A stretch of DNA of 64,000 nt from an uncultured Bacteroidales bacterium (GTDB taxonomy: Bacteria > Bacteroidota > Bacteroidia > Bacteroidales > Paludibacteraceae), in assembly GCA_946403315.1 (NCBI GenBank), contig CAMIZK010000001.1, positions 1,588 to 65,587 on the forward strand, read 5' to 3'. The notes under the pieces are model-generated. The model saw only the letters and a program-made list of their open reading frames with translations, had not been told where the DNA came from and did not search any database. Made by a program: the position numbers and the translations under genes. Positions 1 through 61,772 of the stretch are shown here, piece by piece. The first letter of the stretch is position 1, and each line of letters opens with the position of its first letter.

Positions 1-1019
1 AGAAGTTCAATCTGCCCGATTTTATCGAGAAGGTTGAGCATTCAGCCATCAGCCATCAGCCATCTGCCATTTTTATCTCTCCCATCCGGGAGGTGGATGA
101 CTTCCACGGTGCCTACAGCAAGGATGACCGGACAAGGTGTTTCCTTAAAGTACAAGACGGATGTAACTATTTCTGCTCTTACTGCACCATCCCTATGGCA
201 CGCGGAAAAAGCAGAAACCCATCGATTTCATCGTTAGTAACAGAAGCCCAAGAAGCCTTAGACGGCGGTGCCAAAGAGATTATTTTAAGCGGCGTGAATA
301 TTGGTGATTTTGGTAGATCAACCAATGAACATTTCATTGACCTATTACGCGCTTTGGATAATCTTCAATCTCCAATATCCAATGTCCAATCTCCAATGGA
401 TACGTACCGTATCCGCATCTCCAGCTGTGAACCGAACCTGCTGAGCGATGAGATCATCGATTTTGTAGCGCACAGTGCCCATTTTGCACCCCATTTCCAT
501 ATTCCGTTGCAGTCCGGCAGTAACACGGTGCTCAAGATCATGGGTCGCCGTTATACGCGTGAGTTATTTGCTGAACGCGTTGCGCATATTAAGACCGTCA
601 TGCCGCATGCCTTCATCGGCGTCGATTGCATGGTAGGTGTGCGTGGTGAGACCGCCGAGTGTTGGGCAGATTATGTCGATTTCATCGAGTCTTTACCCGT
701 TTCTCAATTGCATGTATTCACCTATTCCGAACGCGCCAACACGCGCATGCTCGAGATGGATCTGGAGGTGATTCCGCAAAAAGAACGGGAACGCCGCAGC
801 AAAGTGCTGCACGAGATATCGGCTCGTAAAACTGAGGCGTTCTACAAAGAACACGAAGGCTTTGAGGCCCTCGTGCTTTGGGAGTCCGGTAACGGACGAA
901 AGGCGAACGGTGACCGGCTAATGTACGGTTTCACCGAGAATTATATCAAGGTCAGTTGTCCGTACAATCGTGCTAAAGTGAACACGTTTGAGCGCATAAC
1001 CGTGCCGCATCTTCATTAG
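1..1019 (+). CDS. mtaB: tRNA methylthiotransferase of the MtaB/MiaB radical-SAM family; the 5' end lies outside the window
   Basis: The frame of ORF 93..1019 stays open back to nt 3 (KFNLPDFIEKVEHSAISHQPSAIFISPIREVDDF...). CNYFCSYC is a CxxxCxxC radical-SAM motif. SGVNIGDFG and PHFHIPLQSGS motifs are present, with a TRAM-like C-terminus. The gene carries three in-frame heptamer arrays. Confidence 0.8.
   Translation, partial: KFNLPDFIEKVEHSAISHQPSAIFISPIREVDDFHGAYSKDDRTRCFLKVQDGCNYFCSYCTIPMARGKSRNPSISSLVTEAQEALDGGAKEIILSGVNIGDFGRSTNEHFIDLLRALDNLQSPISNVQSPMDTYRIRISSCEPNLLSDEIIDFVAHSAHFAPHFHIPLQSGSNTVLKIMGRRYTRELFAERVAHIKTVMPHAFIGVDCMVGVRGETAECWADYVDFIESLPVSQLHVFTYSERANTRMLEMDLEVIPQKERERRSKVLHEISARKTEAFYKEHEGFEALVLWESGNGRKANGDRLMYGFTENYIKVSCPYNRAKVNTFERITVPHLH
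43..70 (+). repeat. Heptamer array, CAGCCAT x3 plus CTGCCAT, in frame in mtaB (SAISHQPSAI)
   Basis: Read directly: cagccat cagccat cagccat ctgccat. Confidence 0.9.
360..394 (+). repeat. Heptamer array of the AATCTCC family, 5 units, in frame in mtaB (NLQSPISNVQSP)
   Basis: aatcttc aatctcc aatatcc aatgtcc aatctcc. Confidence 0.9.
887..921 (+). repeat. Degenerate heptamer array of the GGCGAAN family in mtaB (GNGRKANGDRL)
   Basis: cggtaac ggacgaa aggcgaa cggtgac cggctaa. The peptide matches the ANGE-type arrays elsewhere in the window. Confidence 0.6.
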
Positions 1020-4664: not shown

Positions 4665-7600
4665 TTGACCTCCTCCAATTTATTCTTTCGTGCGTACCAT
4701 AGGTAACCGCGAACAGGGTTATAACCGATCCTGCGCAGTGCCTCTTTATATTCGTTCACCTGCGTATGGTATTTTTTATCCGGATGCTCTCCGAACTTAT
4801 AGTCCAGTACAATGGCTTCATGGGTGACGGGATTGATCATCACACGGTCCGGCCGCAGCTCCTGCCGGTCAATATAGATGGCTTCTTCGAGCCGCAACTC
4901 CCAAGGGGCCGTGAACCAGTCTTTCATCTGCTCATTGCCTTGCCATGCCGATGAAATCAGCGCTTTTAATTCCTCCCGTTGTGCTTTATCCTTGATCTGA
5001 CCATTACTTTCAAACATATCCAGAACGGCATCCAGTTCCTCGGCTTTTCGTACATGCGCGAAGATCTCATGGCATAGCGTTCCTTCATCCATACGTGCCA
5101 CACGGCGGTAGGCTTCATCGCCGTAATCGGTGTATAACGCACCTTCCTGGGACTGAACGAACTGCACTTGTTTGCCATCCGACCATAGTTCGGCCGTCTC
5201 CCCATTCGCCGTTAACCTTTCGCCATTCGCCTTTATCACCGGTGTTCCTACTTCGTAATCATCGGCACCGACAAAATCCATGATATAGCGTCCGACGTGG
5301 TTACAGGTACCCATGACGCCGTTGACCGTAACGGGATAGGAAGTATAGACAAAGAGATTATCTTCCGCCCGGGTGAGCGCCACATAAAGCATATTGAGGT
5401 TATCTATCCGCATGTTGGCATGCTCCTCCTCATGGGCCTCAGCATAGGCCGAATCACCCATCTCCGGTCCGTCTTGAATGGGCACATAATCATCGCCCAT
5501 GTTTAGTTCCGGAGCCACCGGACACCACACTTTCTGCGGATGCCGACCGGCTTCTTTAGGCCACATGCAGAACGGCACGAACAGCGTCTGCGCCTGCAGG
5601 CCTTTGCTGGCATGGACGGTCATGATACGGATGGCATCAGAGGACGTAGCCGGAATAGCTTTGGCATGCATGGTGTCTTCCCAATACGTGAGGAAATCCT
5701 CCTTGCTGCTGCCATATGCGCCTACGTACGCCCGTGTGCGATCCAATAAGTTATTGAGATACGCCGTCTCCGAACCGTGGTACTGGCCGTTCGCATCACA
5801 AAGCAGGATACGGATCAATTCACTGATGGTTTCAAAAAGCGGCGTATCGGGTGTGATGGAGGAACGTATTTGTTCGATGAAACCGATAGAACCTGTACGC
5901 ATCTCGATATACAAAGCCGCCACTAAATCGTTTTTCACCAGCACTCTCAGTCCGGCGATGACCAATTGCACATCTGCCGACGCTTCGAGTACATAACTGT
6001 CTGCACTGACCACCGGATAAGGCGACAGGTCACAGATAAGGTTAGCTTCTTTCTTCTCACGCACCAGAATGAGGATATCCGACAGGCGGGTTCCTTTTTC
6101 TACCAGTTCCCCAATGCGGTCAAACATATAGAGCGCCATTTCCTCTTTCGTTCCTTTTGGAAAGGCTTTGAACTGCACATACCCGCCGGGTTTCTTATCC
6201 GCCTGGTAGAACTGCGATAACTTCTCCTCCTTATATCCTTCTGAGTAGATACGTTCCGGAGCACCGTCTTTACGGATGATACGATCGAAGAGGGAGAGGT
6301 TGAATTTCACCACCTCTTCGGAACTGCGGAAGTTCTGGGTAAGCGATTTGAATTTTTTGTTCAATCGTTCCCCATTCGCCGTTAGCCTTTCGCCATTCGC
6401 CGTTAAACCGTCCATGATATGCCAGTCACCGTTTCGCCAACGGTAGATAGACTGCTTGATATCGCCTACCACGAGCAGGGTGTGACCGGCACCGGCCAAT
6501 ACATCTTCGAGGAGTTTCCGGATAACGGACCATTGCAGCTGGCTCGTATCCTGGAACTCATCCATCAGCACATGCTTGTACCGGATACCGGCTTTCTCCA
6601 AGATAAAGTCGGCATCGCCTTCGCGTAAGGCCTTGCTGAGCGTACCGGCTGTTCGTGCCAGCAGGGCGCAATTGGCTTCCGCCAGATTACGTTGGATGAG
6701 TGCCTGAAGGGACGCCATCAGTTCCTGATCACGCGAAAAACGGATGGTGAGTTGCAGCGTATTATATCTTCGCCCTACCCGTGCCGCCAGTTCCGTCGCC
6801 TGCGCCATCTCATCGGCATTACAACTCTTCTCACTCACACCGCGAAAACGGTCTCTGACCGGTACACTCTCCGGATCGGCCACACTGCGTTTGAGACGCT
6901 CGAAAGCGGCGGTCGTATTTCGGTTATAGGACTCAGGATTACAGTGTTTGAGCAAGTCTTTGAGTTCCCGGAACGAAGGATCGTTGGCCCATTGTTCCTC
7001 GATCGCCTTGCGTCTGCGTTCGATAGCCGCAGCATCAAAAAGAATCTGACCGTCTGCATCCAGCACCTGCACCGATTCGTTATACAGTTCCTTGGCCATG
7101 GCGCAGAGACTTTCCCTCACATCCCAATGACTCTCCTGATCGAGTTTAAGACGCATATATTCCTCCATGATCGCCCGGTCCGCAGGCGTCATGTCAGTGG
7201 TTAGCAACTGATCCACCGCCTGGCGTATCACATGGTCGATGTCCAGTTCGGTATTCAGTCCGGCACTCATCTGCAGCACACCGGCCAGACCGCTGAGCAG
7301 GGTCTGGAGAAAAGCGTCGATCGTCATGACGTGCACATTATCATAGTCCAAGAGCATGCGTTTGAAACATTCCCCTGCGCGCTGCGCCAGCAGTTCTTGA
7401 GGTGCTTCCGCATCACGCAGCATGAACTGCCGGGCACGATTCAGGAAATCCTCTTCCTGACCTTGCGAGATACCATGCAGGTACTTGATGATACGCTCAC
7501 TCATCTCCGACGTCGCCTTGTTGGTAAACGTAATAGCGAGAATAGAGCGATAGTCTTCACCGGACAGCAACAAACCTACATAATACGCTGCTAAAGTATA

Positions 7601-7687: not shown

Positions 7688-7720
7688 CAAAATTACAAAA
7701 AAAAATTGATATATGCAAAT
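7688..7720 (-). promoter_or_regulatory. Bacteroidota sigma-A-type promoter for the addA-like operon
   Basis: Sense strand: TTTGCATATATCAATTTTTTTTTG-TAATTTTG. The TTTG-to-TAnnTTTG spacing is 20 nt. The ATG lies 19 nt below the -7 box. Confidence 0.8.
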
Positions 7721-24654: not shown

Positions 24655-24687
24655 CAAAATTACAAAAAAAAAATGACATACGCAAAT
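24655..24687 (-). promoter_or_regulatory. Promoter of the DUF177-rpmF(-rluB...) operon
   Basis: Sense strand: TTTGCGTATGTCATTTTTTTTTTG-TAATTTTG, with 20-nt spacing. Confidence 0.8.
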
Positions 24688-28335: not shown

Positions 28336-28367
28336 CAAAAGTACAAAAAAATTTGCATATATGCAAA
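28336..28367 (-). promoter_or_regulatory. Promoter of the glucosaminidase/LysM gene (half of a divergent pair)
   Basis: Sense strand: TTTGCATATATGCAAATTTTTTTG-TACTTTTG, with 20-nt spacing. Confidence 0.75.
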
Positions 28368-28383
28368 AAAAGCAGTAATTTTG
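28352..28383 (+). promoter_or_regulatory. Promoter of the lipoprotein / DAHP synthase transcription unit (other half of the divergent pair)
   Basis: TTTGCATATATGCAAAAAAAGCAG-TAATTTTG, with 20-nt spacing. It shares the palindrome TTTGCATATATGCAAA (28352-28367) with the minus-strand promoter. Confidence 0.75.
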
Positions 28384-36952: not shown

Positions 36953-39900
36953 TTAATACAGCATAATTTTACCGGAACTGAGTCGTGTCTTCTCATCGGC
37001 AAAGAAACAATAGATATACGGCTGACCCGGTATCACATCGATCAACAGACCGGAACGGGTATCCGTCACATCGTTCAGATGTTGCTGCATGTCTGCGCCC
37101 TGAATGATCTGTGCATCATTCGGGTTTGCAACCGGTACTCGGTCATAGAATACCATATGTCCGTACTGGTCGTAGAGGGCGATAGTCACACCCTGACGAA
37201 CGGTAGCCGCCAGAATCTGGCACGAACCCTGTACGCGTTTGAGCAGCACGTCGGCGGAGGTCACCTGCTCACCCGGTTTGATATCCGAGATCGCAAAGTC
37301 AATATAGTAATACCGCTCGCTTCCGTCAGCTGCCGTACAAATGATGGCACAAGTATCACCAATTACCACACGACCCAGATCGACTTCCGCATTCTCCGAA
37401 CGTGCTTCCGCATTAATCTCCGGTACCGCACCACCTTCTAATATATAATAGGTGTAGAACGTGGTCTCCGGATCAAAGTCAGCCAGCATATTTCCATCCA
37501 CTGTGATCCATGCCAAAGCATTGTCACCGTCTTGCGCCGTGATCTGACTGATCAGATAGGTGCAGGATGTATATCCGTCTTGCGCCACAACCACGATATT
37601 GATCACGCCGTCTGCATCGGTATAGATCGTATCTACGGCCAGGCTGTCGCTTAAGGTATAAGTCACAGTCTCCTGCGTGAAGTAAGCCGCACTGTCTGTT
37701 CCGTACGGATGCGCATACACATATTCGGTCTTCGTCGGACGGAAGTCCGCAAACTCCTCACCATTCATTGCCAGCGAGATCAACAAGGCGTCAGACGGTT
37801 TGACGAAATGGAAAGTGATCGTATAGATCGCCTGATCCTCACCGTTCGGTGCCGTCACCGTCACATCGATCTGCACATCGCCGTTCGGCAGGTAATGCAA
37901 GGTCGTATCCGCCTGCTGCTCCTCGTCGTAATAAACCGGAGTGATCGTCGGCAACTGCGCCTCTAAGCTCTGCTCCTTGTCGTATTGCAGGTTCACCAGA
38001 TAACTGTACACCTCCGGACGATACGGGAATTGCGACGTCGGATAGGTCGTTCCGTCCGCATCCGTCAGCACGATGTCACGCAACGTGGTGTTAGCCGATT
38101 TGAGGCGCTCAAACGTCATCTTATAGGTACTCTGATAATTAATATCTTCCGCCGTCACATAAACCAGCACCGTATCTTCTACCACTTGGATCTCGTACAC
38201 TTGTGCTTCCTCTTTCTTGATCACGGAAACTACCGGAACAGATGCTTCTTTCTCGATCTCCACCTTGTAGTTGAAGCGCTCCGAATCGAAGTAAGCCAAC
38301 GGTTTACCACCTAAGTTAATCATGTTCAGCGTCGCTACCGTGGACAGTTCCACCGGATAATGGATCGTGTACAGACGCGTCTTACCGGTAGCTGCCGTCA
38401 CGGTGATGATGGATTTGTAACCGAGCGACTTACCGCTTAACGAGTCTTCCGGCATCTGGGAAACAAGCACCGTCTGATAGTCGTCACCGGCGATGTATTC
38501 CACGTTCGGCATCTGACCGTTCAGCTCTGCGGCATATTCCGCACTGAGGGTCACGTAATAGTCTGTCGTAGCCGGCGCAAAGTTCGCCAATTGCTTTTGA
38601 TCCACAAAGATCATCTGCAGGTAATCCACATCGGATTTGTCGATGGTATACGAAACGGTGTACGTATTCTTCTTGCCGCTCTCCGAGGTGACGTAGATCT
38701 GACGAATGAGCGTGTTCGTGGTGTGCTCCACGGTATCCATATAAATGGTCTGCCAGTCGTCTTGTTCCTGCCAACTCAGATCCGGGAAAGCGATGGTACC
38801 TACCGGTAAGGAGAGTGCATAATACATTGTGCTCGCATCAAAGCCCTCCAAAGCCTGACCGTCCTGATAGATCATGTTCAGCTGATCGGCATCGGACTGC
38901 GTGAGGTGGAATACCACTACATAGGTATTCTCCCGAACCGTCGGATCTTCTGCCTGCACCTTGATGGTAGCCTGCAGTTTGTCGGTATCGATCTCGATGG
39001 ATTGGATCACCTGACCGGCTTCCGCTTTCTGCGCAGCCACTTCCGGCATCGCGTGTATACCTACCGGCAGATCTACCTGGTAGAAGTAATACGCCGGATC
39101 AAAACTGTCCAACGAGTCTCCATCCAGGAAGATCATACTCAGGTCAGCATTCTTCGACAACGGCACGGTAAACTTCAGCGTGTACGTATTAAGCGTTCCG
39201 TCCACGGCACGTACATCCAGCAATATCGAATCCGGACGATGAAGGATCTCTACCGTCTGACCGTCCATCTTGAGTTGTGCACTCACTTCCGGCAGCACGG
39301 TCGTGCCGGACGGCAGATGGATCTCGTAGTTGTTATTACCGCCGTTAAATGCCAGGTCGGCATTCAGTGCATGCTCAAACGTATCCATCGTCTGACCGTT
39401 CAGCAGGATATTCGCCAACTGCGCGTCGTTCGATTTGTTCTCGATGTAAATCATCACCTCGTACTTGGAATGGTCACCGTTCTCTGCCGTCACCTGTAAT
39501 GTATATTTGTACTGGTGGTTCTCCTGGATCGTTTCGATCTCCGTCGTCACGGTCTGGAAGCGGTCATCGGAAGTATAATCGATCTCGATAGAGGAAGAAC
39601 GAATGGACTGCGAATAGAAATGGCGTCCGGCTTCAAACTGCTCCACCGGTTCACCGTTCACCATGATACCCGTCAGATCCACACAACTGCTCTTGGCGGC
39701 TGAGATAGTGATGGTATAGGTGTTATCGCTTCCGTCGCCTGCCTGTACATACAGTTCGGTAGCCGAACCGTTGAGTTCACCGGTAGTCAAGGTCACGTGT
39801 TGCTCTTCGTCACCTACCACATACGTGATCGACGGCATCGTCGGTATAGCCGTCTTCACCGCCGGAACCGGCAGCTCAACGGTATAGTCAAACGTGGTCG

Positions 39901-42900
39901 GAACAAAACCATCCAATGCCACACCATCCAGCAGAATCGCCGACAAAGTAGCATTATGGCTCTTCGGACGACGAATGGTTACTTGATAGGTCTTAGTGGT
40001 ACTGTCTTCTGCCGTCACTGTCGCCGTATAAACAACCACTTCTCCTGCCGCCGTCGCTTGATTGGTCACAATGGTCTGAACGCTCTCTGCCTCCACTGCT
40101 TTGATGACAAACTCACCGTCCAACTCGATTGTATATTGGGTATCCGACGCACTGAATTCAGTATATGGTTCACCGTTAATCAGGATATTCGCCAGGTTCG
40201 CATTACCGCTCTTCTCCGTCGGATAGGTCAGCACGTAGGTATGATTGGTATTTCCAAATACTTGCCATTCCATGTGATCCGGCGCCTGGATATATACCAC
40301 CGAGTCCTTATCGAACTTACGCTCAAACAAGATCGCCTGAGTCGGTTTAGCCTCCGTTGCGGAATAGGTGTCGCCACCTAATGCCTGCCAAGGCGTACCG
40401 TTCTTCGTGAACTCCTTGATCTGACCGTTCGTCGTGATCGTCGGATCAATACGGTGGATCGTGTACGTCTGTTGGGTCACACCGTCCTGAGCAGTTACGG
40501 TGAATACCGCACCGTCTTTGGTATAATCGATATCGACTAACTGACCCTCTTTCTTGATGATCTCCACGATCGGCATAGTCGTTGCTTCTACGGAGTAGAT
40601 CAGCTGACCGGCATCTACCGTGTTGAGCGTACCGCTTTCCAAGGACCAGCTCTCCGGTTCGGCATCGTTGCTCTTGGTCTCACGGAATACATAGACGGTC
40701 GTTTTCTCACTGCCGTTCTCTGCGGCCACTTTCACCGTCACCGCATTACCGTTCTTGCTCATCGTGATCAACTGATGGATACTCTCCGGCGTGACGGTCA
40801 TACCCGGTAACTGCTTCGTACCGTACGGCAGTGCCACAAAGACGGTGTCGTCCTTGGTGGTGGTTGCATACGAACCGAAAGCAGCGGTGTAATCGAGTGT
40901 TGTCACCGGTGTACGTTTGAGCACCACCGTATAAACAGTACTATCCTTGGCGTTCTCACCGTAGTTAACCACTTTCGCTTGCAATTCTCCGTTAATCCAT
41001 TCGCCGTTATTGAGCCACTCGATAGTTTGCATTTGATCATGAACCTTACCGGTGAACTTCAGTTCCGGCAAACCTAAGATCACTTCATTCGCACCTAAGG
41101 TGTACGTAAACGTGTTACCGCTCTTCGTCGCCGATTGACCGTTCACCTTCACACCCGTCAACTCGGAGTTATAGACGAAATGAATATTGTTATAGATCAC
41201 ACTGGACTCGTAGATTGTTGTTCCGTTGAATTTAGACGAGTTCTCTTGATCGCAGGACGACAGCATCACATTGAATTTCGACACTGCGTTGGTAGGCAAA
41301 GTGATCGGTACATTCACCGTCTGCCACGTGTTGAGAGACGAGAAATCACCGGTATAACTGCTTTCTTTGTAATTCGATCCGTCCGACATCGTCAGCCACA
41401 TCTTCCAGTTGGTGATGTTATTAGTGGACAGCGGTTTGGCTTCAAACGCCAAGGATTCCGGAGTATTTTTGAAGTTCGTACCGGTAGAAGCATTCTTACC
41501 GACAGATGAAGATGTTTTTCCTGTACTACCTAAAGAAAGACTCATAGTACCCAGAGTCATTTGTCCGGATACGGAACAGTTCATCGGAGCGCCGCGTAAA
41601 GTAGAGAGCAGTACACCGTTCGAACCGGACGGAACAACCTCCATTCCAGTCGAATAGGTGAAGTCAATGCCCATGATACCCCACGTATATCCGTCGTCGC
41701 AGTCGGCCGGCACTTTCCAAAGCGAAGAGGGTTTATAGCCGTTTCCTTGTGCTGCCTTAGTCCAGTCCACCGTGAAATCAAAGATATTATCATAGTTGGT
41801 ATAATACCAACATACACTGTACGTCTCGCCGTTCGCTACCGTCAGCGTCACTTGCTTCTTCTTGTTATCCAAATTGGAAACCGTCACGTTAGCATTGCCG
41901 TAAGCCGTACCTGCGAAATCGGATTTGGCAGGCTGTCCCGTCACTTTGACGATGTAGTTATATACATCCGGACGGAAATTGGGTACCGTCACGCCTTTGA
42001 AGGTCAGGTTCTGCAACTTACCTGCGGTCTCATATGCCGGCATCTTAGGTACGACGGTATAGGTCACGTCGGACTCCCCTGCCCGGTTGGCGGCAGCAAT
42101 CACCGTTGCTCCGCGACGGATACCTCCGTTGTAGAAATAAACGGTTTGTTCGTTATAGTTCTTCTCCACATTTGTCACCTCAAAACTCTTGGCGCCGAAC
42201 GGCAGGTTCACGATGTTCTCACCCGCTACCGGTTGCAGTTCACCATTCACCGTAGCACCCGAAGCGTTCGTGTACGAATAAGCGATATGCTTGATCTTGT
42301 TCTCGCCTTCCGGAACGGCTACGTTGTAACGGATCGAATAGGTGCGGCTGTTCGTACCCTTCTCGTTGGTCACGATGATCTTCGTCTCACCCGTCAGCGG
42401 TGCTTCGATATAATGAACCGTCTGACCGGCTTGCGCCTTATACACCACGTCGTACGGTTCTACCTGCTCAAACGGCACGTTGAACGTGAACTCCGTCGTG
42501 TTCACATCTTTGGCTTCACCGTCTATCATCAGGGTTTGTAACTGCGTGTCATCCGATAACTCAACCGGGAAAGCAATCGTATAGTCTCCTTCCGAACCGT
42601 CTTGGGCTACCACATGAATCCGGGCCACTCCGTTGGGACGGCAGAAATAGGTTGTTACCGTCTGGTTGTCCGATTGCGGCACCGCGTTGATATTCGGAAT
42701 CACCTTCGCATCACGCGGCAAAGCGATGCTGTAGTTCGTCTTGTCGGCACGGAAACCATCCATCGACACACCGTCGATAAGAATGTCCGCCAACTGTACA
42801 TTATTACTTTTAACACGCGTGTACTCGATCGTGTAGATGTTCTGCGCTCCATTCTCGGCTTGTACCAGCACATGCTGCGTCGAGTCATTCTCCGCATAAA

Positions 42901-45900
42901 CCATCACTGCCTGACCGGGTTCCGGTACAGCAGTCACGTTCGGTAAGGCAGCACCTTCCGGTACCACAAATCCGCTGTAGTTATTCCGGGTCTTGCTATA
43001 GTTCAAGTCGTATCCTTCGATTGCCAGATCCTGCAGCGTCGCATCCGCATGCAGTGCGATAGTATAGGTCACGGTGTACGTCGCTTGACTTCCGTCTTCG
43101 GCAGCTACCGTAATACCGAATGTACCTGTTTCCAGCTGACCGCAGAAGATCACCTGCGTGTTCTCTTTCGCCAGATACGAGATCGCCGGATATGCACTGC
43201 CTGCCGGTAAATCATAAGCGTACGTCAACTGACCGGCATCAAAACCGTCTATCAGCGCACCGTCTGCATAGATCGCTTCCAGCGCTTTGTCCGACGAATA
43301 GAGACGGGTGAACGAGACGCTGTACGATGCTTTCTCACCCTCGTCGTTGGTCACATACACCCATGCCACGTCGCCTTTCCATAACACATTCACATGCTGC
43401 GATGCGTCTGCGGCAATACCTTCTACCGTCGGACGAACGCTCCTATACGTTGCCTCATAGGTCATCTGCGTCGGTGCAAAACCGGCGATGCTCACGCCGT
43501 TCACTAACAAGTCTTGCAACTGCACCGCCGTCGAGGCTACCGGCACAAACGTGATGGTGTACGTGTTGGCAGCACCTTCTTCCGGCAGCACCTTGATGGT
43601 AGCCACGCCGGCTGCGTACGGTGCCGTGATCGTCACCTGCTGACCGGCGGCTTTATCCACCGTGATTGCCGGACAGGTCTCACCCGGTAAAGTCAGGATA
43701 TATGTCAACGAATCCGAACGGAAACCGTCCAGTTCCACGCCGTCCAAGTAAATCATCTCTAAGAACGCGTTCTGCGATACCTGCACGATGAACGTGATCG
43801 TATATTCGCGTTTGGCACCGCTCTCGGCCGTCACCGTTATCTTCTGCACCTTGCCTTCTAATACACTCAGTACCCGTTGGCTCGCCTCGGCCTTGTCGTA
43901 CGTCACCGTCGGAATAGCACTCACGCCTTCCGGCAGATGATACTCATATGCGGTAGTCTGAGGATCAAAACCGTCCAAGGCTACCCCGCCCACGTAGATC
44001 ATGTTCAGGTTCACGTTCGTGCTGGTAGCTACCGAGAAATGGAGGATATACGTGCGGCTGGCACCACTCTGGGGACGAACCGTGATCTTGTAATCACCCG
44101 TCAGACCGCTGATCGTACGTACCGTCGCGGTCTGGAAGTTCTCGTTCTGCAGCGTATAGGTTACTTCCGGTAAAACGGTTGTTCCCTGCGGCAGGTTGAT
44201 ATAGTATTCCTCCGTCTGAGGATCAAAAGCAATATCGTATCCGGCTACACTCAGGTTCGCTAAGGTGTTATCCGTGTACGTCGTTACCGAGAAAGCAATC
44301 TGGTAGATCGTCGTGCTTCCGTCACCGGCAGTGACCGTGATACGGGTCTTACCGTTCAAACCTGCCGTCGTGATGCTGTAGGTCTGCCATTCGTCGCCGA
44401 GAACCGGTTCTATCGTCGGCAGTTCGGTCGTTCCTACCGGTAACGGATAGGCATACGACGTCTGATCCGGATTAAATCCTTCGATCGCTACTCCGCCGAT
44501 GAGGATTCCGTTCAGCGTCGAGCGGTCGGATTTCTCCGTGGAGAACACGATCTTATACACCGTCTGGTCTCCGTTGCCTGCCGTCACCGTGATACGTACC
44601 GTTCCGTCCAACGCACCATCCGGCAGGTCGGTCTTCTCGATCGTCTGGTAGTCATCGCCCTTGATCCAGGTGATCGCCGGCAAAGCGGTTGTACCTAACG
44701 GCATGTTCACGTAATAGGTCGTGTTCATCGGATCGAAGGTCGTGATATAGTCACCTGCCGACAGGTTCTGCAGATAGGTGTACGAAGAAGCCTCCAGACG
44801 GAAGTTCAGTTTATACACTTTCGCTACCGTATTCCCCGGCGTGGTCACGCTTACCGTGTAGGTTCCGCCGTCAATGATCGACGGTGCCTTATAGACGATC
44901 GTCTGCTCCCCTGCCGGATAAGCCGAAACACCCTCCACCGTCGGCATGGTGGTCGTGTTGGTAGGCAGCGACACCTTATATACCGCCTGCGAAGGTGTGA
45001 AACCCGGTATCGATTTTCCGTTCACCTTGATATCCTGCAGCGTGTTATCCGCTAACAGTCCCACTTTGAACGTGATGTTATACGTCGCTTTACCGGTTCC
45101 GTTAGCCGCCGTCACGTTGACGGTTGCTTTACCCGTCAGCGAAGCAGCCTGCGTGATCGTGTAGGTCTGTTCATCTTCCTGCTTCTCCGCATCCACTACC
45201 GGCACACCTTGCGCACCGTACGGTAGCTCTACCGTGTAGTTATAGGTACTCGGACTGAAATTCGAGATAGCGGCCTGTTGCTGATTGCCGTGGATATCCG
45301 TGTAAGAATAATAGATGTTCGCCAACTTGGCATTACTGCTCTTCTCGGCTTGGAACAGGATCTGATAGGTTGTGGTACTGCTGCCGTCTTCGGCACGCAC
45401 CACGATCGTGGTCGGTGTTCCGCCTACGGTACCGTTGGTGATCGTGATCTCGCTGCCTTGCAACTTACGACCCGGGAAGGACTTCGTCGTTCCTCGAGCA
45501 TTGGTCAATGAACCGGCACCGCGGAATGCCTCCACAGACGGAACGGCCGTCGTACCTTCCGGTACCGAATAGACCTGCACACCCGTGTTGTCGGGATCAA
45601 AACCCTTCCATTCCTTACCGCCCACACGCAGGGTCTGGATCTTGGAGGAATAGATCAAATTCACATCATCCACGTACAGTGAGTTGCCTTCATACAAACC
45701 GTCGTTGGCACGGAAGTTCGGATAGTTGGACGCCGAGAAGATCATGTTCATGTACTTCGGCGTGTTGTCGTTGAAGTAATAGATCGGCACTTTGATGTTC
45801 GTCCAGTTGCCGTAGTTGGCGCGTTCACGCCACATACCTTCGCATACCTGGTCACCGGCTACCGTCGTCTTACATTCGTTTCCGTTCATGGCGATACGGA

Positions 45901-46447
45901 TATCCGACTCCTCGTTGGTCTCGGAGTGGGAAGTACACTGGGTGTTCTTTCCCTTATAGGACGTACCCTGCGCTTGTTTCTCCCATGCGTAATACAAGAG
46001 GTAAAAATCCTCTTTGTCCCAATTGCTTCCCGTACGCTTGATCCATACCGACATCGTATCCGGACGATGGGTCCAACTCTGGCCGCCCGACGTACCGGCT
46101 GTCGCCTGGTTGATAGCCGTGATACTCGGCAAGTAGGCCCAAGGCTGACCGATCGCAAAATAACCCGGACTGGTCTCCGTGATACCCATGGCCCCCACCG
46201 ACTGATCCTGTACCATCAGACAGTAACCGCCGTTATGACCGCTCTCCTTATGGGCAAAGTTAAACTTCATACCCACCTGCTCCACGTTCGACGCATTCCA
46301 TCCTTTCGGCTGCGGCTCGCCGCTGAAAGCAGCTCCGGACCAATCCTCAAAATTAGCGTTGGTCACCTGATACGAGTCTGCCCACACGGCCAAAGGCATG
46401 CCGATAAGGACCAAAGAGACTAATACCTTACGTAAAAATGTACTCAT
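36953..46447 (-). CDS. Giant (3164 aa) secreted surface protein with two PCMD-like domains, roughly 25-30 cadherin-like beta-sandwich repeats and a T9SS-type C-terminal domain
   Basis: The signal peptide is MSTFLRKVLVSLVLIGMPLAVWA. The N-terminal segment (YQVTNANFEDWSG...PKGWNASNVEQ) is PCMD-like. A module of about 90 aa recurs, of the form L..I.V.G..I.GF.P....Y...LP.GT...P.V........Q...I.........I.VTAEDG....Y.I.F. A second PCMD-like domain lies mid-protein. The C-terminal roughly 90 aa (VTIALYDQYGHMVFY...SSGKIMLY) resemble a T9SS sorting domain. Confidence 0.75.
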   Translation of the reverse strand: MSTFLRKVLVSLVLIGMPLAVWADSYQVTNANFEDWSGAAFSGEPQPKGWNASNVEQVGMKFNFAHKESGHNGGYCLMVQDQSVGAMGITETSPGYFAIGQPWAYLPSITAINQATAGTSGGQSWTHRPDTMSVWIKRTGSNWDKEDFYLLYYAWEKQAQGTSYKGKNTQCTSHSETNEESDIRIAMNGNECKTTVAGDQVCEGMWRERANYGNWTNIKVPIYYFNDNTPKYMNMIFSASNYPNFRANDGLYEGNSLYVDDVNLIYSSKIQTLRVGGKEWKGFDPDNTGVQVYSVPEGTTAVPSVEAFRGAGSLTNARGTTKSFPGRKLQGSEITITNGTVGGTPTTIVVRAEDGSSTTTYQILFQAEKSSNAKLANIYYSYTDIHGNQQQAAISNFSPSTYNYTVELPYGAQGVPVVDAEKQEDEQTYTITQAASLTGKATVNVTAANGTGKATYNITFKVGLLADNTLQDIKVNGKSIPGFTPSQAVYKVSLPTNTTTMPTVEGVSAYPAGEQTIVYKAPSIIDGGTYTVSVTTPGNTVAKVYKLNFRLEASSYTYLQNLSAGDYITTFDPMNTTYYVNMPLGTTALPAITWIKGDDYQTIEKTDLPDGALDGTVRITVTAGNGDQTVYKIVFSTEKSDRSTLNGILIGGVAIEGFNPDQTSYAYPLPVGTTELPTIEPVLGDEWQTYSITTAGLNGKTRITVTAGDGSTTIYQIAFSVTTYTDNTLANLSVAGYDIAFDPQTEEYYINLPQGTTVLPEVTYTLQNENFQTATVRTISGLTGDYKITVRPQSGASRTYILHFSVATSTNVNLNMIYVGGVALDGFDPQTTAYEYHLPEGVSAIPTVTYDKAEASQRVLSVLEGKVQKITVTAESGAKREYTITFIVQVSQNAFLEMIYLDGVELDGFRSDSLTYILTLPGETCPAITVDKAAGQQVTITAPYAAGVATIKVLPEEGAANTYTITFVPVASTAVQLQDLLVNGVSIAGFAPTQMTYEATYRSVRPTVEGIAADASQHVNVLWKGDVAWVYVTNDEGEKASYSVSFTRLYSSDKALEAIYADGALIDGFDAGQLTYAYDLPAGSAYPAISYLAKENTQVIFCGQLETGTFGITVAAEDGSQATYTVTYTIALHADATLQDLAIEGYDLNYSKTRNNYSGFVVPEGAALPNVTAVPEPGQAVMVYAENDSTQHVLVQAENGAQNIYTIEYTRVKSNNVQLADILIDGVSMDGFRADKTNYSIALPRDAKVIPNINAVPQSDNQTVTTYFCRPNGVARIHVVAQDGSEGDYTIAFPVELSDDTQLQTLMIDGEAKDVNTTEFTFNVPFEQVEPYDVVYKAQAGQTVHYIEAPLTGETKIIVTNEKGTNSRTYSIRYNVAVPEGENKIKHIAYSYTNASGATVNGELQPVAGENIVNLPFGAKSFEVTNVEKNYNEQTVYFYNGGIRRGATVIAAANRAGESDVTYTVVPKMPAYETAGKLQNLTFKGVTVPNFRPDVYNYIVKVTGQPAKSDFAGTAYGNANVTVSNLDNKKKQVTLTVANGETYSVCWYYTNYDNIFDFTVDWTKAAQGNGYKPSSLWKVPADCDDGYTWGIMGIDFTYSTGMEVVPSGSNGVLLSTLRGAPMNCSVSGQMTLGTMSLSLGSTGKTSSSVGKNASTGTNFKNTPESLAFEAKPLSTNNITNWKMWLTMSDGSNYKESSYTGDFSSLNTWQTVNVPITLPTNAVSKFNVMLSSCDQENSSKFNGTTIYESSVIYNNIHFVYNSELTGVKVNGQSATKSGNTFTYTLGANEVILGLPELKFTGKVHDQMQTIEWLNNGEWINGELQAKVVNYGENAKDSTVYTVVLKRTPVTTLDYTAAFGSYATTTKDDTVFVALPYGTKQLPGMTVTPESIHQLITMSKNGNAVTVKVAAENGSEKTTVYVFRETKSNDAEPESWSLESGTLNTVDAGQLIYSVEATTMPIVEIIKKEGQLVDIDYTKDGAVFTVTAQDGVTQQTYTIHRIDPTITTNGQIKEFTKNGTPWQALGGDTYSATEAKPTQAILFERKFDKDSVVYIQAPDHMEWQVFGNTNHTYVLTYPTEKSGNANLANILINGEPYTEFSASDTQYTIELDGEFVIKAVEAESVQTIVTNQATAAGEVVVYTATVTAEDSTTKTYQVTIRRPKSHNATLSAILLDGVALDGFVPTTFDYTVELPVPAVKTAIPTMPSITYVVGDEEQHVTLTTGELNGSATELYVQAGDGSDNTYTITISAAKSSCVDLTGIMVNGEPVEQFEAGRHFYSQSIRSSSIEIDYTSDDRFQTVTTEIETIQENHQYKYTLQVTAENGDHSKYEVMIYIENKSNDAQLANILLNGQTMDTFEHALNADLAFNGGNNNYEIHLPSGTTVLPEVSAQLKMDGQTVEILHRPDSILLDVRAVDGTLNTYTLKFTVPLSKNADLSMIFLDGDSLDSFDPAYYFYQVDLPVGIHAMPEVAAQKAEAGQVIQSIEIDTDKLQATIKVQAEDPTVRENTYVVVFHLTQSDADQLNMIYQDGQALEGFDASTMYYALSLPVGTIAFPDLSWQEQDDWQTIYMDTVEHTTNTLIRQIYVTSESGKKNTYTVSYTIDKSDVDYLQMIFVDQKQLANFAPATTDYYVTLSAEYAAELNGQMPNVEYIAGDDYQTVLVSQMPEDSLSGKSLGYKSIITVTAATGKTRLYTIHYPVELSTVATLNMINLGGKPLAYFDSERFNYKVEIEKEASVPVVSVIKKEEAQVYEIQVVEDTVLVYVTAEDINYQSTYKMTFERLKSANTTLRDIVLTDADGTTYPTSQFPYRPEVYSYLVNLQYDKEQSLEAQLPTITPVYYDEEQQADTTLHYLPNGDVQIDVTVTAPNGEDQAIYTITFHFVKPSDALLISLAMNGEEFADFRPTKTEYVYAHPYGTDSAAYFTQETVTYTLSDSLAVDTIYTDADGVINIVVVAQDGYTSCTYLISQITAQDGDNALAWITVDGNMLADFDPETTFYTYYILEGGAVPEINAEARSENAEVDLGRVVIGDTCAIICTAADGSERYYYIDFAISDIKPGEQVTSADVLLKRVQGSCQILAATVRQGVTIALYDQYGHMVFYDRVPVANPNDAQIIQGADMQQHLNDVTDTRSGLLIDVIPGQPYIYCFFADEKTRLSSGKIMLY

Positions 46448-46633: not shown

Positions 46634-47797
46634 TTATGCAATATCTGAATGCTGACGGCTGACGGCTGATAGCTTTTTCAAATGACAGAGCATGAGACTG
46701 CCGTCTTCCCGGCGAAGGTGCATTCCGTTGCCTTCGCAGAACGAGAAAGCCTTGCAGTCTTTGCAGGGTTCCGTTTGCCGCATCCAACTGCGGTCACGGT
46801 ACGGTTTAAATCCGTTTTCCCAAACGGACCAGAAAGAGTCTTTGTAGATATTGCCCTGGTAGTATTTTCCCCGGATGGAGGTGCAGGCAGATATCGAACC
46901 GTCGATGAGAATAGAGGCAACGGAGATACCGGCTGCGCATTGGTAGAGATGATCCCGTACACGCCCTTCATAGTCCCCCAAATAGCCTTCGCACGAATAG
47001 CTCACATGCCTACCCGCTTCCCGTTCGCACACGATATAGTCCATTAGCTGTTTGAACTGCGCATCCATAAGGATCAATTCCGGATTTTCCGCTGCACGCC
47101 CCATAGGGTCGATACCGAAGACACGCCAATTGCGAACACCCAGTTCCCACAGCATCTCCCTTATCGCCGGTAAGTGGTCTATCGTGCGCTGGTTCACACA
47201 CGTCACCACATCCCAGGCTATCGGCTGACGGCTGACGGCTAAATGCTGACGGCTGACGGCTGAATGCTGACGGCTGACGGCTGAATGCTGACGGCTGTTA
47301 TAATCCGCAATCAGTTTGATTGCTCGTGTGGCACCTTCGAAAGCCAAAGGGTGCTGCCGCAGCCATACATGGTCCGCTTCCAAACCGTCACACGAGACGG
47401 TGATGGAGCGTAAACCGGCATCTAACAGTTCATGAAATTTCTTCTCCGTCAGCGCCAAACCGTTGGTCACCATTCCCCATGGATAGCCGCGTTGCTTGAG
47501 CGCCCTACCCACTTCCGCCAAGTCTTTGCGCATCAGCGGTTCACCGCCGGAGATAACGATCATCACTTCATGCGGATCCACGTGCGGTGTCACTTCCGTG
47601 TCGATGACCTTAAGAAAGTCTTCCGCCGGCATGTCCGGCGTCTCGATAGACGCAATGCAGTCGCTGCCGCAATGCAGGCAATGTACATTACATCGTAATG
47701 TGGACTCCCAGAACAGCTGGCGTAACGGATGCAACTCCTTCAAGTTATGCCTCCGCCAACGCTCTAACCACAGCGCTATCTTCAGCCTCAGTCTCAT
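46634..47797 (-). CDS. Radical SAM enzyme with a C-terminal SPASM domain
   Basis: CNVHCLHC is a CxxxCxxC motif, and ISGGEPL is present. The C-terminal Cys-rich SPASM-like region reads CAAGISVASILIDGSISAC...CKDCKAFSFCEGNGMH. The start overlaps the lipoprotein stop (ATGA, 47794-47797). It has two in-frame heptamer arrays. Confidence 0.85.
   Translation of the reverse strand: MRLRLKIALWLERWRRHNLKELHPLRQLFWESTLRCNVHCLHCGSDCIASIETPDMPAEDFLKVIDTEVTPHVDPHEVMIVISGGEPLMRKDLAEVGRALKQRGYPWGMVTNGLALTEKKFHELLDAGLRSITVSCDGLEADHVWLRQHPLAFEGATRAIKLIADYNSRQHSAVSRQHSAVSRQHLAVSRQPIAWDVVTCVNQRTIDHLPAIREMLWELGVRNWRVFGIDPMGRAAENPELILMDAQFKQLMDYIVCEREAGRHVSYSCEGYLGDYEGRVRDHLYQCAAGISVASILIDGSISACTSIRGKYYQGNIYKDSFWSVWENGFKPYRDRSWMRQTEPCKDCKAFSFCEGNGMHLRREDGSLMLCHLKKLSAVSRQHSDIA
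46644..46671 (-). repeat. Heptamer array with sense unit CAGCCGT, at the extreme C-terminus of the rSAM/SPASM gene (LSAVSRQHSDIA-stop)
   Basis: Plus strand: tctgaat gctgacg gctgacg gctgata. Confidence 0.85.
47217..47300 (-). repeat. 12-unit (84 nt) heptamer array with a 21-nt superperiod inside the rSAM/SPASM gene (SRQHSAV x about 4)
   Basis: Plus strand: gctatcg gctgacg gctgacg gctaaat gctgacg gctgacg gctgaat gctgacg gctgacg gctgaat gctgacg gctgtta. Confidence 0.95.
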
Positions 47798-47997
47798 TCG
47801 TACAGATTGAACGCAGGCGGAATACCGTACTTAACGTACACTTCCGGATCCGGTTTTACCGGCTGCACTTTTGTCGTATCCGACGGGTTCTCGTCCTTCG
47901 GCGTCTGCGGCACAGGCTTCGAAGAATGACAACCTGCTAAGGCCAAACTGGCTGCTCCTAACAGCACATTGATTCGTAATAAGGCTTTCTTTTTCAT
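47794..47997 (-). CDS. Small (67 aa) lipoprotein translationally coupled to the radical SAM/SPASM enzyme
   Basis: It has a signal peptide and lipobox (LALAGC), a Pro/Lys-rich spacer, and a C-terminal VYVKYGIPPAFNLYE. A strong promoter lies 23 nt upstream. Confidence 0.65.
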   Translation of the reverse strand: MKKKALLRINVLLGAASLALAGCHSSKPVPQTPKDENPSDTTKVQPVKPDPEVYVKYGIPPAFNLYE

Positions 47998-48019: not shown

Positions 48020-48052
48020 CAAAGGTACAACAAAAAAATGATATATGCAAAT
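48020..48052 (-). promoter_or_regulatory. Promoter of the lipoprotein-rSAM/SPASM pair
   Basis: Sense strand: TTTGCATATATCATTTTTTTGTTG-TACCTTTG, with 20-nt spacing. ATG 47997 lies 23 nt below the -7 box. Confidence 0.8.
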
Positions 48053-48078: not shown

Positions 48079-48516
48079 TTACAAATCGGGGTTTTCGACG
48101 CGGATGACGGCACGGATGAAGTTATCCGGACGGACATAGATAGTGTAGTTTCCGTCTTTGTCACGCGGTGCGATAGGATCGGGTTTTCCTTTGAGTTGGG
48201 CGTAGAAACGAGTCATGTAGGAGTCTAACAAGGCCTGTTTGGCAGGTTCGAGGGGCGTTTTGTTTTTGGCAGCATTGATGAGTTCCTGCGCAAGATGGGA
48301 GGCCTTTCCGAATGCGGTCATGTTGGCTTTTTCGCGGAGAAGAGGCGGATTTGTCTTGAAGTTACGGGGGTTTGGTTTAAAGACCTCCATACGTCCGACT
48401 TTGGTGATTTCACCATCAAAACCACGGAATGTTTTCTTGCGGATAGTCAGTCCGTTTCGAGTGTTCAACGAGCCTGTAATCTCTTCCACAGAAGAGTTGT
48501 ATTTGAGTTTTGCCAT
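48079..48516 (-). CDS. Conserved hypothetical 145-aa protein (paralogue of 62139..62576)
   Basis: It aligns collinearly with the other 145-aa ORF (MAK..Y, TG.L.TR, ITK, ALLD.Y..RF..QLKG.PDP.AP.DK.G, DNFIRA.I). It has its own promoter and a long repeat-bearing leader. Confidence 0.6.
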   Translation of the reverse strand: MAKLKYNSSVEEITGSLNTRNGLTIRKKTFRGFDGEITKVGRMEVFKPNPRNFKTNPPLLREKANMTAFGKASHLAQELINAAKNKTPLEPAKQALLDSYMTRFYAQLKGKPDPIAPRDKDGNYTIYVRPDNFIRAVIRVENPDL

Positions 48517-61363: not shown

Positions 61364-61772
61364 GCAGACGCTGCAGACAGCGCTGCAACAGATTGAACAG
61401 GAAGTAGGGCACGTAGATCGCTGCTCTTCTTTTTTCTATTCCGAGCCTTGGGGTTTCGAGAGCACCCACGGGTTTTGTAACCTCTGCTGCCGCGTAGAGA
61501 CGGAGTTGATGCCGTTAGAGGTACTGCATAAGACGCAGGCGATTGAACGGGCGTTGGGACGAACGCATAAGAGCATGGATGGCCATTATGCGGACCGAAC
61601 GATCGATATAGATCTGATACGGGTTTTTGATAAGGAGGGGAAAGAGATAAAATTAGCTATCAGCCATCAGCCGTCAGCCATCAGCGATGAGCCTCAATGG
61701 CTTACGCTCCCCCACCCGCTTTGGGAGCAGCGGGATTTTGTGAAGCTTCCATTAGCTGAGATAATGTACTGA
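61320..61772 (+). CDS. folK: 2-amino-4-hydroxy-6-hydroxymethyldihydropteridine diphosphokinase (HPPK)
   Basis: YFLSLGSNLGN, YSEPWGF, RTIDIDLI and LTLPHPLWEQRDFVKLPLAEI motifs are present. I place the start at ATG 61320, overlapping cvpA by 44 nt. It has an in-frame heptamer array (LAISHQPSAISDE). Confidence 0.85.
   Translation: MYYFLSLGSNLGNCEQTLQTALQQIEQEVGHVDRCSSFFYSEPWGFESTHGFCNLCCRVETELMPLEVLHKTQAIERALGRTHKSMDGHYADRTIDIDLIRVFDKEGKEIKLAISHQPSAISDEPQWLTLPHPLWEQRDFVKLPLAEIMY
61654..61688 (+). repeat. Heptamer array of the CAGCC(A/G)T family, in frame in folK (AISHQPSAISD)
   Basis: tagctat cagccat cagccgt cagccat cagcgat. Confidence 0.9.

Follow-up and report, generated by a model that had tools for sequence, protein, structure and literature searches.

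Does a radical S-adenosylmethionine (SAM) enzyme that is encoded directly beside a small lipoprotein gene modify that lipoprotein, and if so, at which residues? The question is raised by a two-gene locus in a stretch of 64,000 nucleotides from an uncultured Bacteroidales bacterium of the Paludibacteraceae (GenBank assembly GCA_946403315.1, contig CAMIZK010000001.1, positions 1,588 to 65,587; hereafter the window), where the gene of a 67-residue predicted lipoprotein overlaps the gene of a 387-residue radical SAM enzyme with a SPASM domain (coordinates in Table 1). An earlier interpretation made from the letters of this DNA (the sequence-only reading) had named the lipoprotein as the candidate substrate. 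Following up that proposal with family, neighborhood and structural comparisons, we find that the pairing is conserved and that its lipoproteins share a four-residue motif, Y-G-x-P, which is probably the site on which the enzyme acts.

The gene pair and the motif shared by its lipoproteins

The enzyme is a member of the NCBIfam family TIGR04133 ("rSAM_w_lipo"), matching at 512.7 bits (cutoff 425; E 4e-154) up to model position 349 of 350, with the match split in two at a repeat insertion. TIGR04133 is the sole NCBIfam family above its cutoff, every other family scoring ~102 bits or less. The CX3CX2C motif and the Pfam matches to Radical_SAM (PF04055, 55.5 bits, cutoff 29.5) and SPASM (PF13186, 31.1 bits, cutoff 21.5, residues 287-349) bear out its description as a radical SAM enzyme with a SPASM domain. 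The lipoprotein stop codon TGA (47794-47796) overlaps the ATG of the enzyme (47795-47797) as ATGA, and the two open reading frames (ORFs) lie exactly where the sequence-only reading had placed and coupled them. That reading had also pointed to a named pairing of a radical SAM enzyme with a lipoprotein in Bacteroidetes in collections of hidden Markov models (HMMs). Enzyme family and pairing are indeed already known from curated HMM libraries as hypothetical equivalogs, TIGR04133 being joined there by TIGR04134 ("radical SAM-associated putative lipoprotein"), both of the type hypoth_equivalog; the family is not confined to Bacteroidota, however, because proteins from Treponema and from a Myxococcota metagenome-assembled genome (MAG) are likewise named as members by NCBI.

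Relatives of the enzyme form 6794 protein clusters at E<=1e-30, human-gut contigs among them, of which the best 120 are 75-95% identical, and a search of 1.84 billion representatives yielded 251 at E<=1e-30. Members above the TIGR04133 cutoff reach down to ~45% identity, with TIGR04133-like unclassified enzymes below, and the closest genomes are MAGs of Paludibacteraceae and Bacteroidales recovered from rumen and gut. No biochemical study of the TIGR04133 family was found in the searchable literature, as had been supposed. Family accessions and names led to nothing relevant (a single mention of TIGR04134, in a paper on type IX secretion), and papers on graspetides and on a Bacteroidetes iron stimulon are unrelated to this enzyme family.

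The lipoprotein (MKKKALLRINVLLGAASLALAGC(23)HSSKPVPQTPKDENPSDTTKVQPVKPDPEVYVKYGIPPAFNLYE, translated from 47794-47997) begins with a K/R n-region (MKKKALLR), a hydrophobic h-region (INVLLGAASLA) and the lipobox LAGC ending in Cys23, and lipidation is predicted from its basic N-terminus, hydrophobic region and lipobox of the form [LVI][ASTVI][GAS]C. Its signal peptide has the R-x-N-V-L-L-G...L-A-G-C that is typical of the family in a position-specific profile of 51 short partners. The tether that follows holds 8 Pro and 4 Lys in 29 residues (the short partners as a whole are 12.7% Pro and 9.7% Glu) and leads into the tail VYVKYGIPPAFNLYE. Cys23 is the only Cys, so that lipobox, Pro/Lys tether and single Cys are all seen in the translation as first described. 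Two close homologues (P0001 and P0002) are 88-90% identical. Because a direct homology search with the 67 residues returned 4 relatives only, the partners considered below were recovered through the neighborhoods of the enzyme.

The window lipoprotein has no NCBIfam or Pfam family match. Membership of TIGR04134 was rejected, since there is no match to that model at E<=0.1 (cutoff 39.8 bits, with 85-87 bits for the true members found at related loci), and a 71-residue short partner (L009, 3789-4004) reaches 16 bits over model positions 2-38. TIGR04134 describes a lipoprotein of ~150 residues with a signal peptide, Y-G-x-P, a CarboxypepD_reg-like beta-sandwich of ~110 residues and an end in ...KLKKK, and the short partners share with it just positions 2-38, which hold the signal peptide and K-Y-G-x-P. 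The window locus resembles the TIGR04133/TIGR04134 system in its full-length enzyme, its overlapping upstream lipoprotein gene and this N-terminal portion of the lipoprotein; unlike that system, it has a lipoprotein that reads as a short variant with neither the beta-sandwich nor the ...KLKKK tail, and an enzyme with a lineage-specific repeat insertion and an altered C-terminus.

Loci were sampled from named genomes (80), from metagenomes (80, led by a 52%-identical member, P0125) and from Treponema contigs, and both sides of the enzyme gene were scanned with a lipobox filter loose enough for the GYGC of locus L083. Conservation of the pairing had been set beforehand as a test, and it holds. 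A same-strand upstream lipoprotein with the Y-G motif (YG-lipoprotein) is present at 62 of 78 evaluable window-like Bacteroidales loci, adjacent to the enzyme gene at 50; in the clade led by P0125 (~50% enzyme identity) one stands upstream at 46/70 loci and directly downstream at 11 more, a total of ~57/70. Three Treponema loci have lipoproteins with Y-G right after the lipobox, namely a CarboxypepD_reg lipoprotein with CVYGG (L161), a downstream lipoprotein beginning SC-YGVV (L162) and one whose gene overlaps the start codon of the enzyme (L164; TAC-GDNPLPVYGAPVVAMYGVPG / TAC-GDNPLPVYGAPVVAMYGVPGNYFILDGKV). A 4-nt overlap like that of the window occurs at 21 junctions in related loci, and overlapping stop and start codons are also found in TIGR04134-paired loci such as L083. 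Besides the lipoproteins, no gene is broadly conserved beside the enzyme across 81 loci, whether for a recognition element of peptides made on the ribosome and modified after translation (RiPPs), known as an RRE, or for anything else. Extra upstream genes at 12 loci (a TPR protein, a 171-residue protein) gave no informative family match, and a Myxococcota relative below the family cutoff is preceded by a small membrane-anchored protein with neither lipobox nor Y-G.

Only two features, a signal peptide of distinctive type and Y-G-x-P in one to five copies, recur in all partner architectures: short Pro/Glu-rich tails, the TIGR04134 beta-sandwich, tiny C-Y-G-P-A-P proteins ('CYGPAP' with acidic tails), a central beta-sandwich flanked by motifs, and an Lpp-like coiled coil ending VVYGPRPT. 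The overall consensus is [K/L/E/M]-Y-G-[V/P/I/T]-P. In a first set of 84 unique partners, the 168 Y-G copies gave [I/P/V]-[M/V]-[V/A/C]-[K/L]-Y-G-[V/P/I]-P-[P/V]-[E/P]; over all sets (151 unique partners) position -1 is K, E, L or M, and position +3 is Pro in 173 copies, followed by Ala in 19. Among the short partners, 131 of 183 Tyr precede Gly. Long ORFs at the same loci contain Y-G-[VIPA]-P five times in 173,911 residues (0.029 per 1000), which corresponds to an expectation of about 0.001 in a 44-residue tail and puts the motif roughly 1000-fold above background. Within the window, 12 ORFs are lipoprotein-like, and the enzyme-adjacent one alone has the motif. From the lipobox Cys to the first copy, the median distance is 11 residues. 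The sequence-only reading had singled out the C-terminal VYVKYGIPPAFNLYE as a whole; its K-Y-G-I-P-P element is conserved, whereas conservation of the first Tyr and of the terminal LYE ends with the closest relatives, and even a 90%-identical homologue does not keep Y54 and Y66.

The signal peptides of YG-lipoproteins also differ from those of other predicted lipoproteins: PhiPhiGPhi is found in 72% versus 20%, Asn at positions -16 to -10 in 50% versus 12%, and the median position of the Cys is 25 versus 21. The signal peptide may double as a recognition element.

Several partner loci show variations of their own. Tandem arrays of two or three YG-lipoprotein genes stand beside a single enzyme gene (L009, 2895-4004; L150, 1594-2710; L112 and L136, ~4590-5590), which suggests that one enzyme serves several substrates. 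At some loci (L005, 3540-3986; L008, 3515-3991; L010, 3543-4001; L015, L023 and L025) the upstream gene encodes a beta-sandwich lipoprotein of 145-158 residues without Y-G-x-P that matches TIGR04134 weakly (21 bits), often with a YG-lipoprotein further upstream. Coiled-coil-like lipoproteins of 88-92 residues, similar to Braun's lipoprotein and ending KVVYGPRPT, are encoded directly downstream of the enzyme in L108 (3676-3954) and L109 (4671-4937), and in a 159-residue YG-lipoprotein (L073, 3500-3979) N-terminal MCLYGPP and C-terminal VLYGALP flank a highly charged repeat, EEARMKAEEEARRKAEEE..., in the middle. Of the partners from the P0125-like clade, 26 of 48 have two or more acidic residues in the 6 positions that follow the lipobox Cys, versus 4 of 83 window-like ones; such an acidic run resembles the surface-export signal of Bacteroidetes (cited in PMC13056109), and the products of the two clades may face different sides of the outer membrane.

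What the enzyme may do at the motif

We consider it probable that Y-G-x-P in these lipoproteins is the substrate site of the enzyme. A motif kept across unrelated architectures in hypervariable surroundings, an enzyme with an anSME-like fold and no RRE, and a cassette of two genes together point to motif-directed modification of unfolded pre-lipoproteins. Radical SAM enzymes act in the cytoplasm, and this one has no signal peptide, while the mature lipoprotein lies outside, so a direct relationship could exist only on the precursor, and modification would precede export if the motif is the substrate site. On the scheme that we propose, the pre-lipoprotein would be made in the cytoplasm, where the TIGR04133 enzyme would bind the unfolded chain at Y-G-x-P (here K56-Y57-G58-I59-P60), possibly helped by the signal peptide. 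SAM would be cleaved to the 5'-deoxyadenosyl radical, a hydrogen atom would be abstracted within the motif, and the oxidative modification would be completed as an electron leaves through the SPASM auxiliary clusters. The modified chain would then be exported and processed like any other lipoprotein (Lgt, signal peptidase II, N-acylation), and the product would be a lipid-anchored envelope peptide or protein with one to five modified motifs.

An AlphaFold2 model of the enzyme was built with diverse representatives added to the alignment (predicted local distance difference test (pLDDT) 94.4, predicted template modeling score 0.92); a model from a shallow alignment of 49 sequences at 80-98% identity (pLDDT 57) was discarded. 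The N-terminal helix of residues 3-22 passes directly into core strand E27-33, with no RRE or PqqD-like domain before the radical SAM core and no PqqD-type Pfam match. In a Foldseek search of the PDB, anSMEcpe (4K36-4K39) ranks first (E ~2e-14, template modeling (TM) score 0.64-0.70, ~400 columns), followed by BlsE, SkfB, SuiB, DesII, PqqE and EpeE, and a sequence search of the PDB matched only the radical SAM core (BlsE, MoaA, PqqE). Of 69 relatives, 66-68 keep the Cys residues of the SPASM region. Position 269 varies among C, E and D (47, 14 and 8 of the 69), position 358, where the canonical motif CX2CX5CX3C has its fourth Cys, is G, S, A or P and never Cys, and His360 is present in 66/69. 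On this pattern, one of the auxiliary clusters may be bound by a residue other than Cys or may have a site left open, His360 and C/E/D269 being candidate replacement ligands.

Two known systems help to place the pair. The substrates of anSME carry signal peptides, and a short linear motif in them is modified ahead of export. anSME is the best full-length structural match and likewise combines a radical SAM core with SPASM, has no RRE and modifies proteins; as a SPASM enzyme that takes a hydrogen from C-beta, it counts among the modifiers of proteins and not among the RiPP maturases (PMC10114670). Unlike anSME, with which it shares 18-19% sequence identity, the window enzyme and its whole family lack the fourth Cys of CX2CX5CX3C and have His360 instead nearby; the C/S-x-P/A-x-R motif of anSME substrates is absent from the lipoprotein, and no NCBIfam anSME family scores above its cutoff.

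The second system comprises the DAG-RiPPs, in which multinuclear non-haem iron (MNIO) enzymes such as DybH modify a C-terminal CPxCGxG of precursors with a lipoprotein signal (DybA) to give triacylated products, from clusters of precursor and enzyme without a partner protein; proteins >30 kDa carry the motif as well as peptides do, and sequence toward the N-terminus is hypervariable (PNAS 2026, PMC13056109). That study mined MNIO enzymes alone, does not mention radical SAM enzymes, and describes its approach as applicable to other enzyme families (PMC13056109). The likeness extends to the signal peptidase II signal and lipobox, a single cytoplasmic enzyme encoded just downstream, the lack of an RRE protein, a minimal motif on short peptides and larger proteins alike, a hypervariable N-terminal part and the prominence of Bacteroidota. 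In contrast to the Cys-based chemistry of multinuclear non-haem iron enzymes, a radical SAM/SPASM enzyme is present here, and its motif is Cys-free, repeatable and often near the mature N-terminus; lipidation and modification were shown experimentally for DAG-RiPPs, whereas here they are predicted from the genes. On our best reading, the pair would be a minimal modification cassette, anSME-like in its logic and a radical SAM counterpart of the MNIO DAG-RiPPs.

The chemistry is harder to predict than the site. Our leading guess, itself doubtful, is a Tyr-centered crosslink within the motif (-2 Da), for example from the Tyr ring to C-beta of the +2 residue, because Y-G-X fits the aromatic-X-X pattern of triceptide synthases. 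These enzymes (3-CyFEs) form aryl-to-C-beta crosslinks on aromatic-X-X motifs that are often repeated in a precursor, YDR and HAA among those known (PMC11499958). Y-G-[V/I/P/T/S...] corresponds to their Omega1-X2-X3, and the partners carry one to five copies; no family relationship is detected, the only cyclophane model in the top NCBIfam matches being WgkB at 45.9 bits (cutoff 650). Characterized triceptide synthases depend on an RRE or leader, whereas the enzyme here has no RRE and its putative substrates are lipoproteins, not leader-core peptides; a PqqD-like recognition element, as in the maturases of leader-dependent RiPPs, is neither fused to the enzyme nor encoded by a conserved gene beside it across the 81 loci. 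PqqE and MftC, too, are radical SAM/SPASM enzymes with chemistry centered on a Tyr of a small ribosomal peptide, and PqqE is among both the sequence and the structure matches. The window enzyme scores 64.7 bits against PqqE (cutoff 381) and 67.9 against MftC (cutoff 265), and the separate PqqD-like chaperone and the fixed E-x3-Y or C-terminal V-Y context that PqqE and MftC need are absent here.

Several observations weigh against the motif as a substrate site, or against a crosslink there. The choice of the lipoprotein as substrate is drawn entirely from gene neighborhood and motif conservation. The fetched flanks of 16/78 and ~13/70 loci hold no YG-lipoprotein, and at 9 and 4 loci, respectively, the adjoining lipoprotein is without the motif. 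The enzyme lacks the full seven-Cys SPASM motif (CX9-15GX4C...CX2CX5CX3C...C), has no RRE that could account for its finding the motif, and is not near any characterized peptide cyclase in NCBIfam; the next-best NCBIfam families of its sub-cutoff relatives, at 151-187 bits, are AhbD (heme b synthase) and NirJ, both tetrapyrrole enzymes, and the small-molecule enzymes BlsE and DesII score almost as well as anSME in Foldseek. Position +2 is very permissive, admitting V, P, T, I, S, C, A, Q, M and, in 3 copies among the 151 partners, Gly, which cannot accept a C-beta crosslink, so that triceptide-like chemistry is weakly constrained.

A tentative possibility is that the enzyme acts at the same Y-G-x-P site by chemistry other than a crosslink, either epimerization, as by YydG and EpeE, or two-electron oxidation at Tyr C-beta or Gly C-alpha. 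The oxidation could yield dehydro- or hydroxy-Tyr, or an alpha-hydroxyglycine followed by backbone cleavage that frees the domain from its lipid anchor. Taken singly, oxidation without a crosslink appears rather unlikely, and epimerization decidedly more so. The best structural match, anSME, carries out a two-electron oxidation and not a crosslink, and the invariant Gly at +1 would fit either steric access to the backbone or Gly itself as the target; cleavage at each Y-G, on the other hand, would fragment multi-motif proteins, which seems wasteful. The epimerase EpeE is among the Foldseek matches (E ~1e-9), with a much lower TM score and a higher root-mean-square deviation than anSME. Known SPASM epimerases act on hydrophobic residues, and Val or Ile is commonest at +2 (116 of ~243 copies), but the invariant residues are Tyr and Gly, not the hydrophobic residue at +2.

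It is unlikely, in our view, that the lipoprotein is no substrate at all and that a small molecule (for example a tetrapyrrole, sugar nucleotide or lipid) or some other protein is the substrate instead, the lipoproteins of the envelope being linked to the enzyme in function by binding, using or depending on its product. The AhbD and NirJ scores, the closeness of BlsE (7VOB) and DesII to anSME in structure, the place of BlsE as best PDB sequence match and the solo enzyme at 16-19% of loci would all suit such a role, and the CarboxypepD_reg-like beta-sandwich of TIGR04134-type partners could be a binding domain. The short partners, however, consist of signal peptide, low-complexity tether and motif, with no folded domain, and the four-residue motif is the sole element kept over at least four architectures and two phyla, as a modification site would be. 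Enzyme and mature lipoprotein are in different compartments, and no transporter or cofactor-pathway gene is conserved with the pair.

A thioether of the sactipeptide or ranthipeptide kind, from the lipobox Cys or a Cys at -2 to a carbon of the Y-G motif, is highly improbable, since most copies of the motif lack a Cys close by and diacylglyceryl transfer requires the lipobox thiol. In its favor, the sactisynthase SkfB (6EFN) ranks third among the structural matches, partners of the 'CYGPAP' type have Y-G immediately after the lipobox Cys, and the median distance of that Cys from the first Y-G is a typical macrocycle size. A Cys at -2 is found in just 23/168 copies, up to 5 motifs in one protein face a single invariant Cys, and the window lipoprotein offers no donor Cys in its core, which upholds the argument that the sequence-only reading had made against this link. 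Nor does it seem credible that the two genes have no direct functional link and that Y-G-x-P is a structural, sorting or binding motif of lipoproteins that merely lie near a conserved enzyme gene: kinship among Bacteroidales could keep neighbors together, as with a giant downstream protein at 17/81 loci, and the partner is missing at some loci, but the adjacency survives ~50% enzyme divergence, changes of gene order and architecture and the jump to another phylum in Treponema while other neighbors differ, 4-nt overlaps recur at 21 junctions, and NCBI curators defined both families by the pairing.

Promoter, repeats and neighboring genes

Table 1. Features of the lipoprotein and radical SAM enzyme locus (positions in the window)
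Feature	Position	Strand	Basis or detail
Predicted Bacteroidetes-type promoter	48020-48051	minus	TTTG (-33, 48048-48051), N20, TAccTTTG (-7, 48020-48027)
Pre-lipoprotein gene, putative substrate, 67 residues	47794-47997	minus	ORF call and translation
Predicted lipoprotein signal peptide (residues 1-22) and lipobox Cys23 (codon 47929-47931)	47929-47997	minus	Profile of 51 short partners
Pro/Lys/Glu-rich, hypervariable, low-complexity tether, residues 24-52	47842-47928	minus	Composition; relatives not alignable here
K56-Y57-G58-I59-P60, Y-G-x-P motif, proposed modification site	47818-47832	minus	Partner alignments
Radical SAM/SPASM enzyme gene, 387 residues	46634-47797	minus	ORF call, NCBIfam TIGR04133, Pfam
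N-terminal basic amphipathic helix, residues 3-22, LRLKIALWLERWRRHNLKEL	47732-47791	minus	AlphaFold2, pLDDT >90; kept in relatives
Radical SAM motif C36-x3-C40-x2-C43	47669-47692	minus	Conserved in 67-69/69 diverse relatives
In-frame tandem repeat, unit CAGCCGT (7 nt), effective period 21 nt, 3.5 copies	47222-47297	minus	Tandem Repeats Finder, 98% matches
SPASM auxiliary-cluster region: C269, C287-x12-G-x4-C305, C345-x2-C348-x5-C354, Gly358, His360, C371	46685-46993	minus	
Second copy of the heptamer repeat, 3' end of the enzyme gene	46651-46669	minus	C-terminus ...KKLSAVSRQHSDIA; relatives end ...HRLGQK

The promoter claimed for the pair fits TTTG-N-TAnnTTTG, which we take from the literature to be the Bacteroidetes promoter consensus, and lies ~23 nt 5' of the lipoprotein ATG inside an upstream gap of 81 nt. 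The assignment is a consensus match; TTTG-N18-22-TAnnTTTG occurs 8 times in the window versus 0.70 expected from shuffles, and the element is near-identical to copies at 7688, 24655 and 28336. A scan for sigma-70 promoters and terminators was uninformative, being irrelevant to a Bacteroidales-like genome, and the TTTG-N-TAnnTTTG pattern was used instead. Stereotyped promoter-like elements of the form TTTGCATATATCA-(T-rich)-TGTAnnTTTG are found at 7688-7719, 24655-24686, 28336-28383 and 48020-48051, those at 28336-28383 forming a back-to-back divergent pair.

Translated, the tandem repeat in the enzyme gene yields SAVSRQH repeats within a surface loop that varies (residues ~165-195; pLDDT about 58 at residues ~179-193). 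The loop joins the SPASM half to the radical SAM core (47213-47305) and is an insertion hot-spot: a 95%-identical relative (P0005) has 14 residues fewer, another (P0007) has three copies of a different 7-residue repeat, TTNDQRP, and others have unrelated inserts (relatives compared at this site include P0036 and P0072). The heptamer CAGCC(G/A)T, with 12 matches versus 0 expected, lies in-frame within coding regions at both sites in the enzyme gene and in folK (61661-61685, encoding AISHQPSAIS), and a further copy stands at the left edge of the window (43-60). It is specific to this genome, because it was found in 0/165 related loci.

Just 5' of the promoter, a 145-residue ORF (48079-48516, minus strand) has no Pfam or NCBIfam match, and other loci do not keep it beside the enzyme. 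On the same strand, immediately downstream of the enzyme gene, a giant protein of 3164 residues (36953-46447) contains many Cadherin-like beta-sandwich repeats. Its gene has a TAatTTTG box of its own ~70 nt 5' of the ATG, no NCBIfam model matched its C-terminal 149 residues, and it is this protein whose homologue follows the enzyme at the 17 loci mentioned above. Some distant relatives of the enzyme (P0240, P0156, P0212 and P0168) are fusions with an M50 membrane metalloprotease, a second radical SAM/SPASM module or a TrmK-type methyltransferase; they fall below the TIGR04133 cutoff (P0240, 247.6 bits) and were not used as evidence.

Implications for the family and its hosts

Beyond the families already in the HMM libraries, two things are new: the partner in the window, a short variant that falls outside TIGR04134, and the combination of Y-G-x-P with a distinctive signal peptide that the partners of Bacteroidales and Treponema have in common. 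A bolder reading, which we hold only tentatively, is that Y-G-x-P is a sequon for an unrecognized modification, made on pre-lipoproteins ahead of export by a radical SAM/SPASM enzyme that lacks a recognition domain. The lipidated peptides and proteins so made would define a radical SAM branch of DAG-RiPPs, spread through thousands of Bacteroidales and Treponema of gut, rumen and mouth. The reaction would lie outside known radical SAM peptide chemistry, and the modified motif would serve the envelope structurally, for instance by closing a periplasm-spanning Pro-rich linker with a rigid or covalent tether.

The motif turns the vague question of a radical SAM enzyme beside a lipoprotein into one that is directly and cheaply testable. 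TIGR04133 enzymes are very common in host-associated anaerobes, and if the proposed substrate site is right, lipoproteins, a class of substrate not known for the radical SAM superfamily, would join its repertoire through a modification directed by a motif. The paradigm of RiPPs made through the lipoprotein pathway would extend beyond MNIO enzymes, and a compact two-gene system with a four-residue tag would become usable for engineering. For the organisms themselves, the envelopes of Bacteroidales and Treponema would carry a new covalent feature on a family of their lipoproteins.

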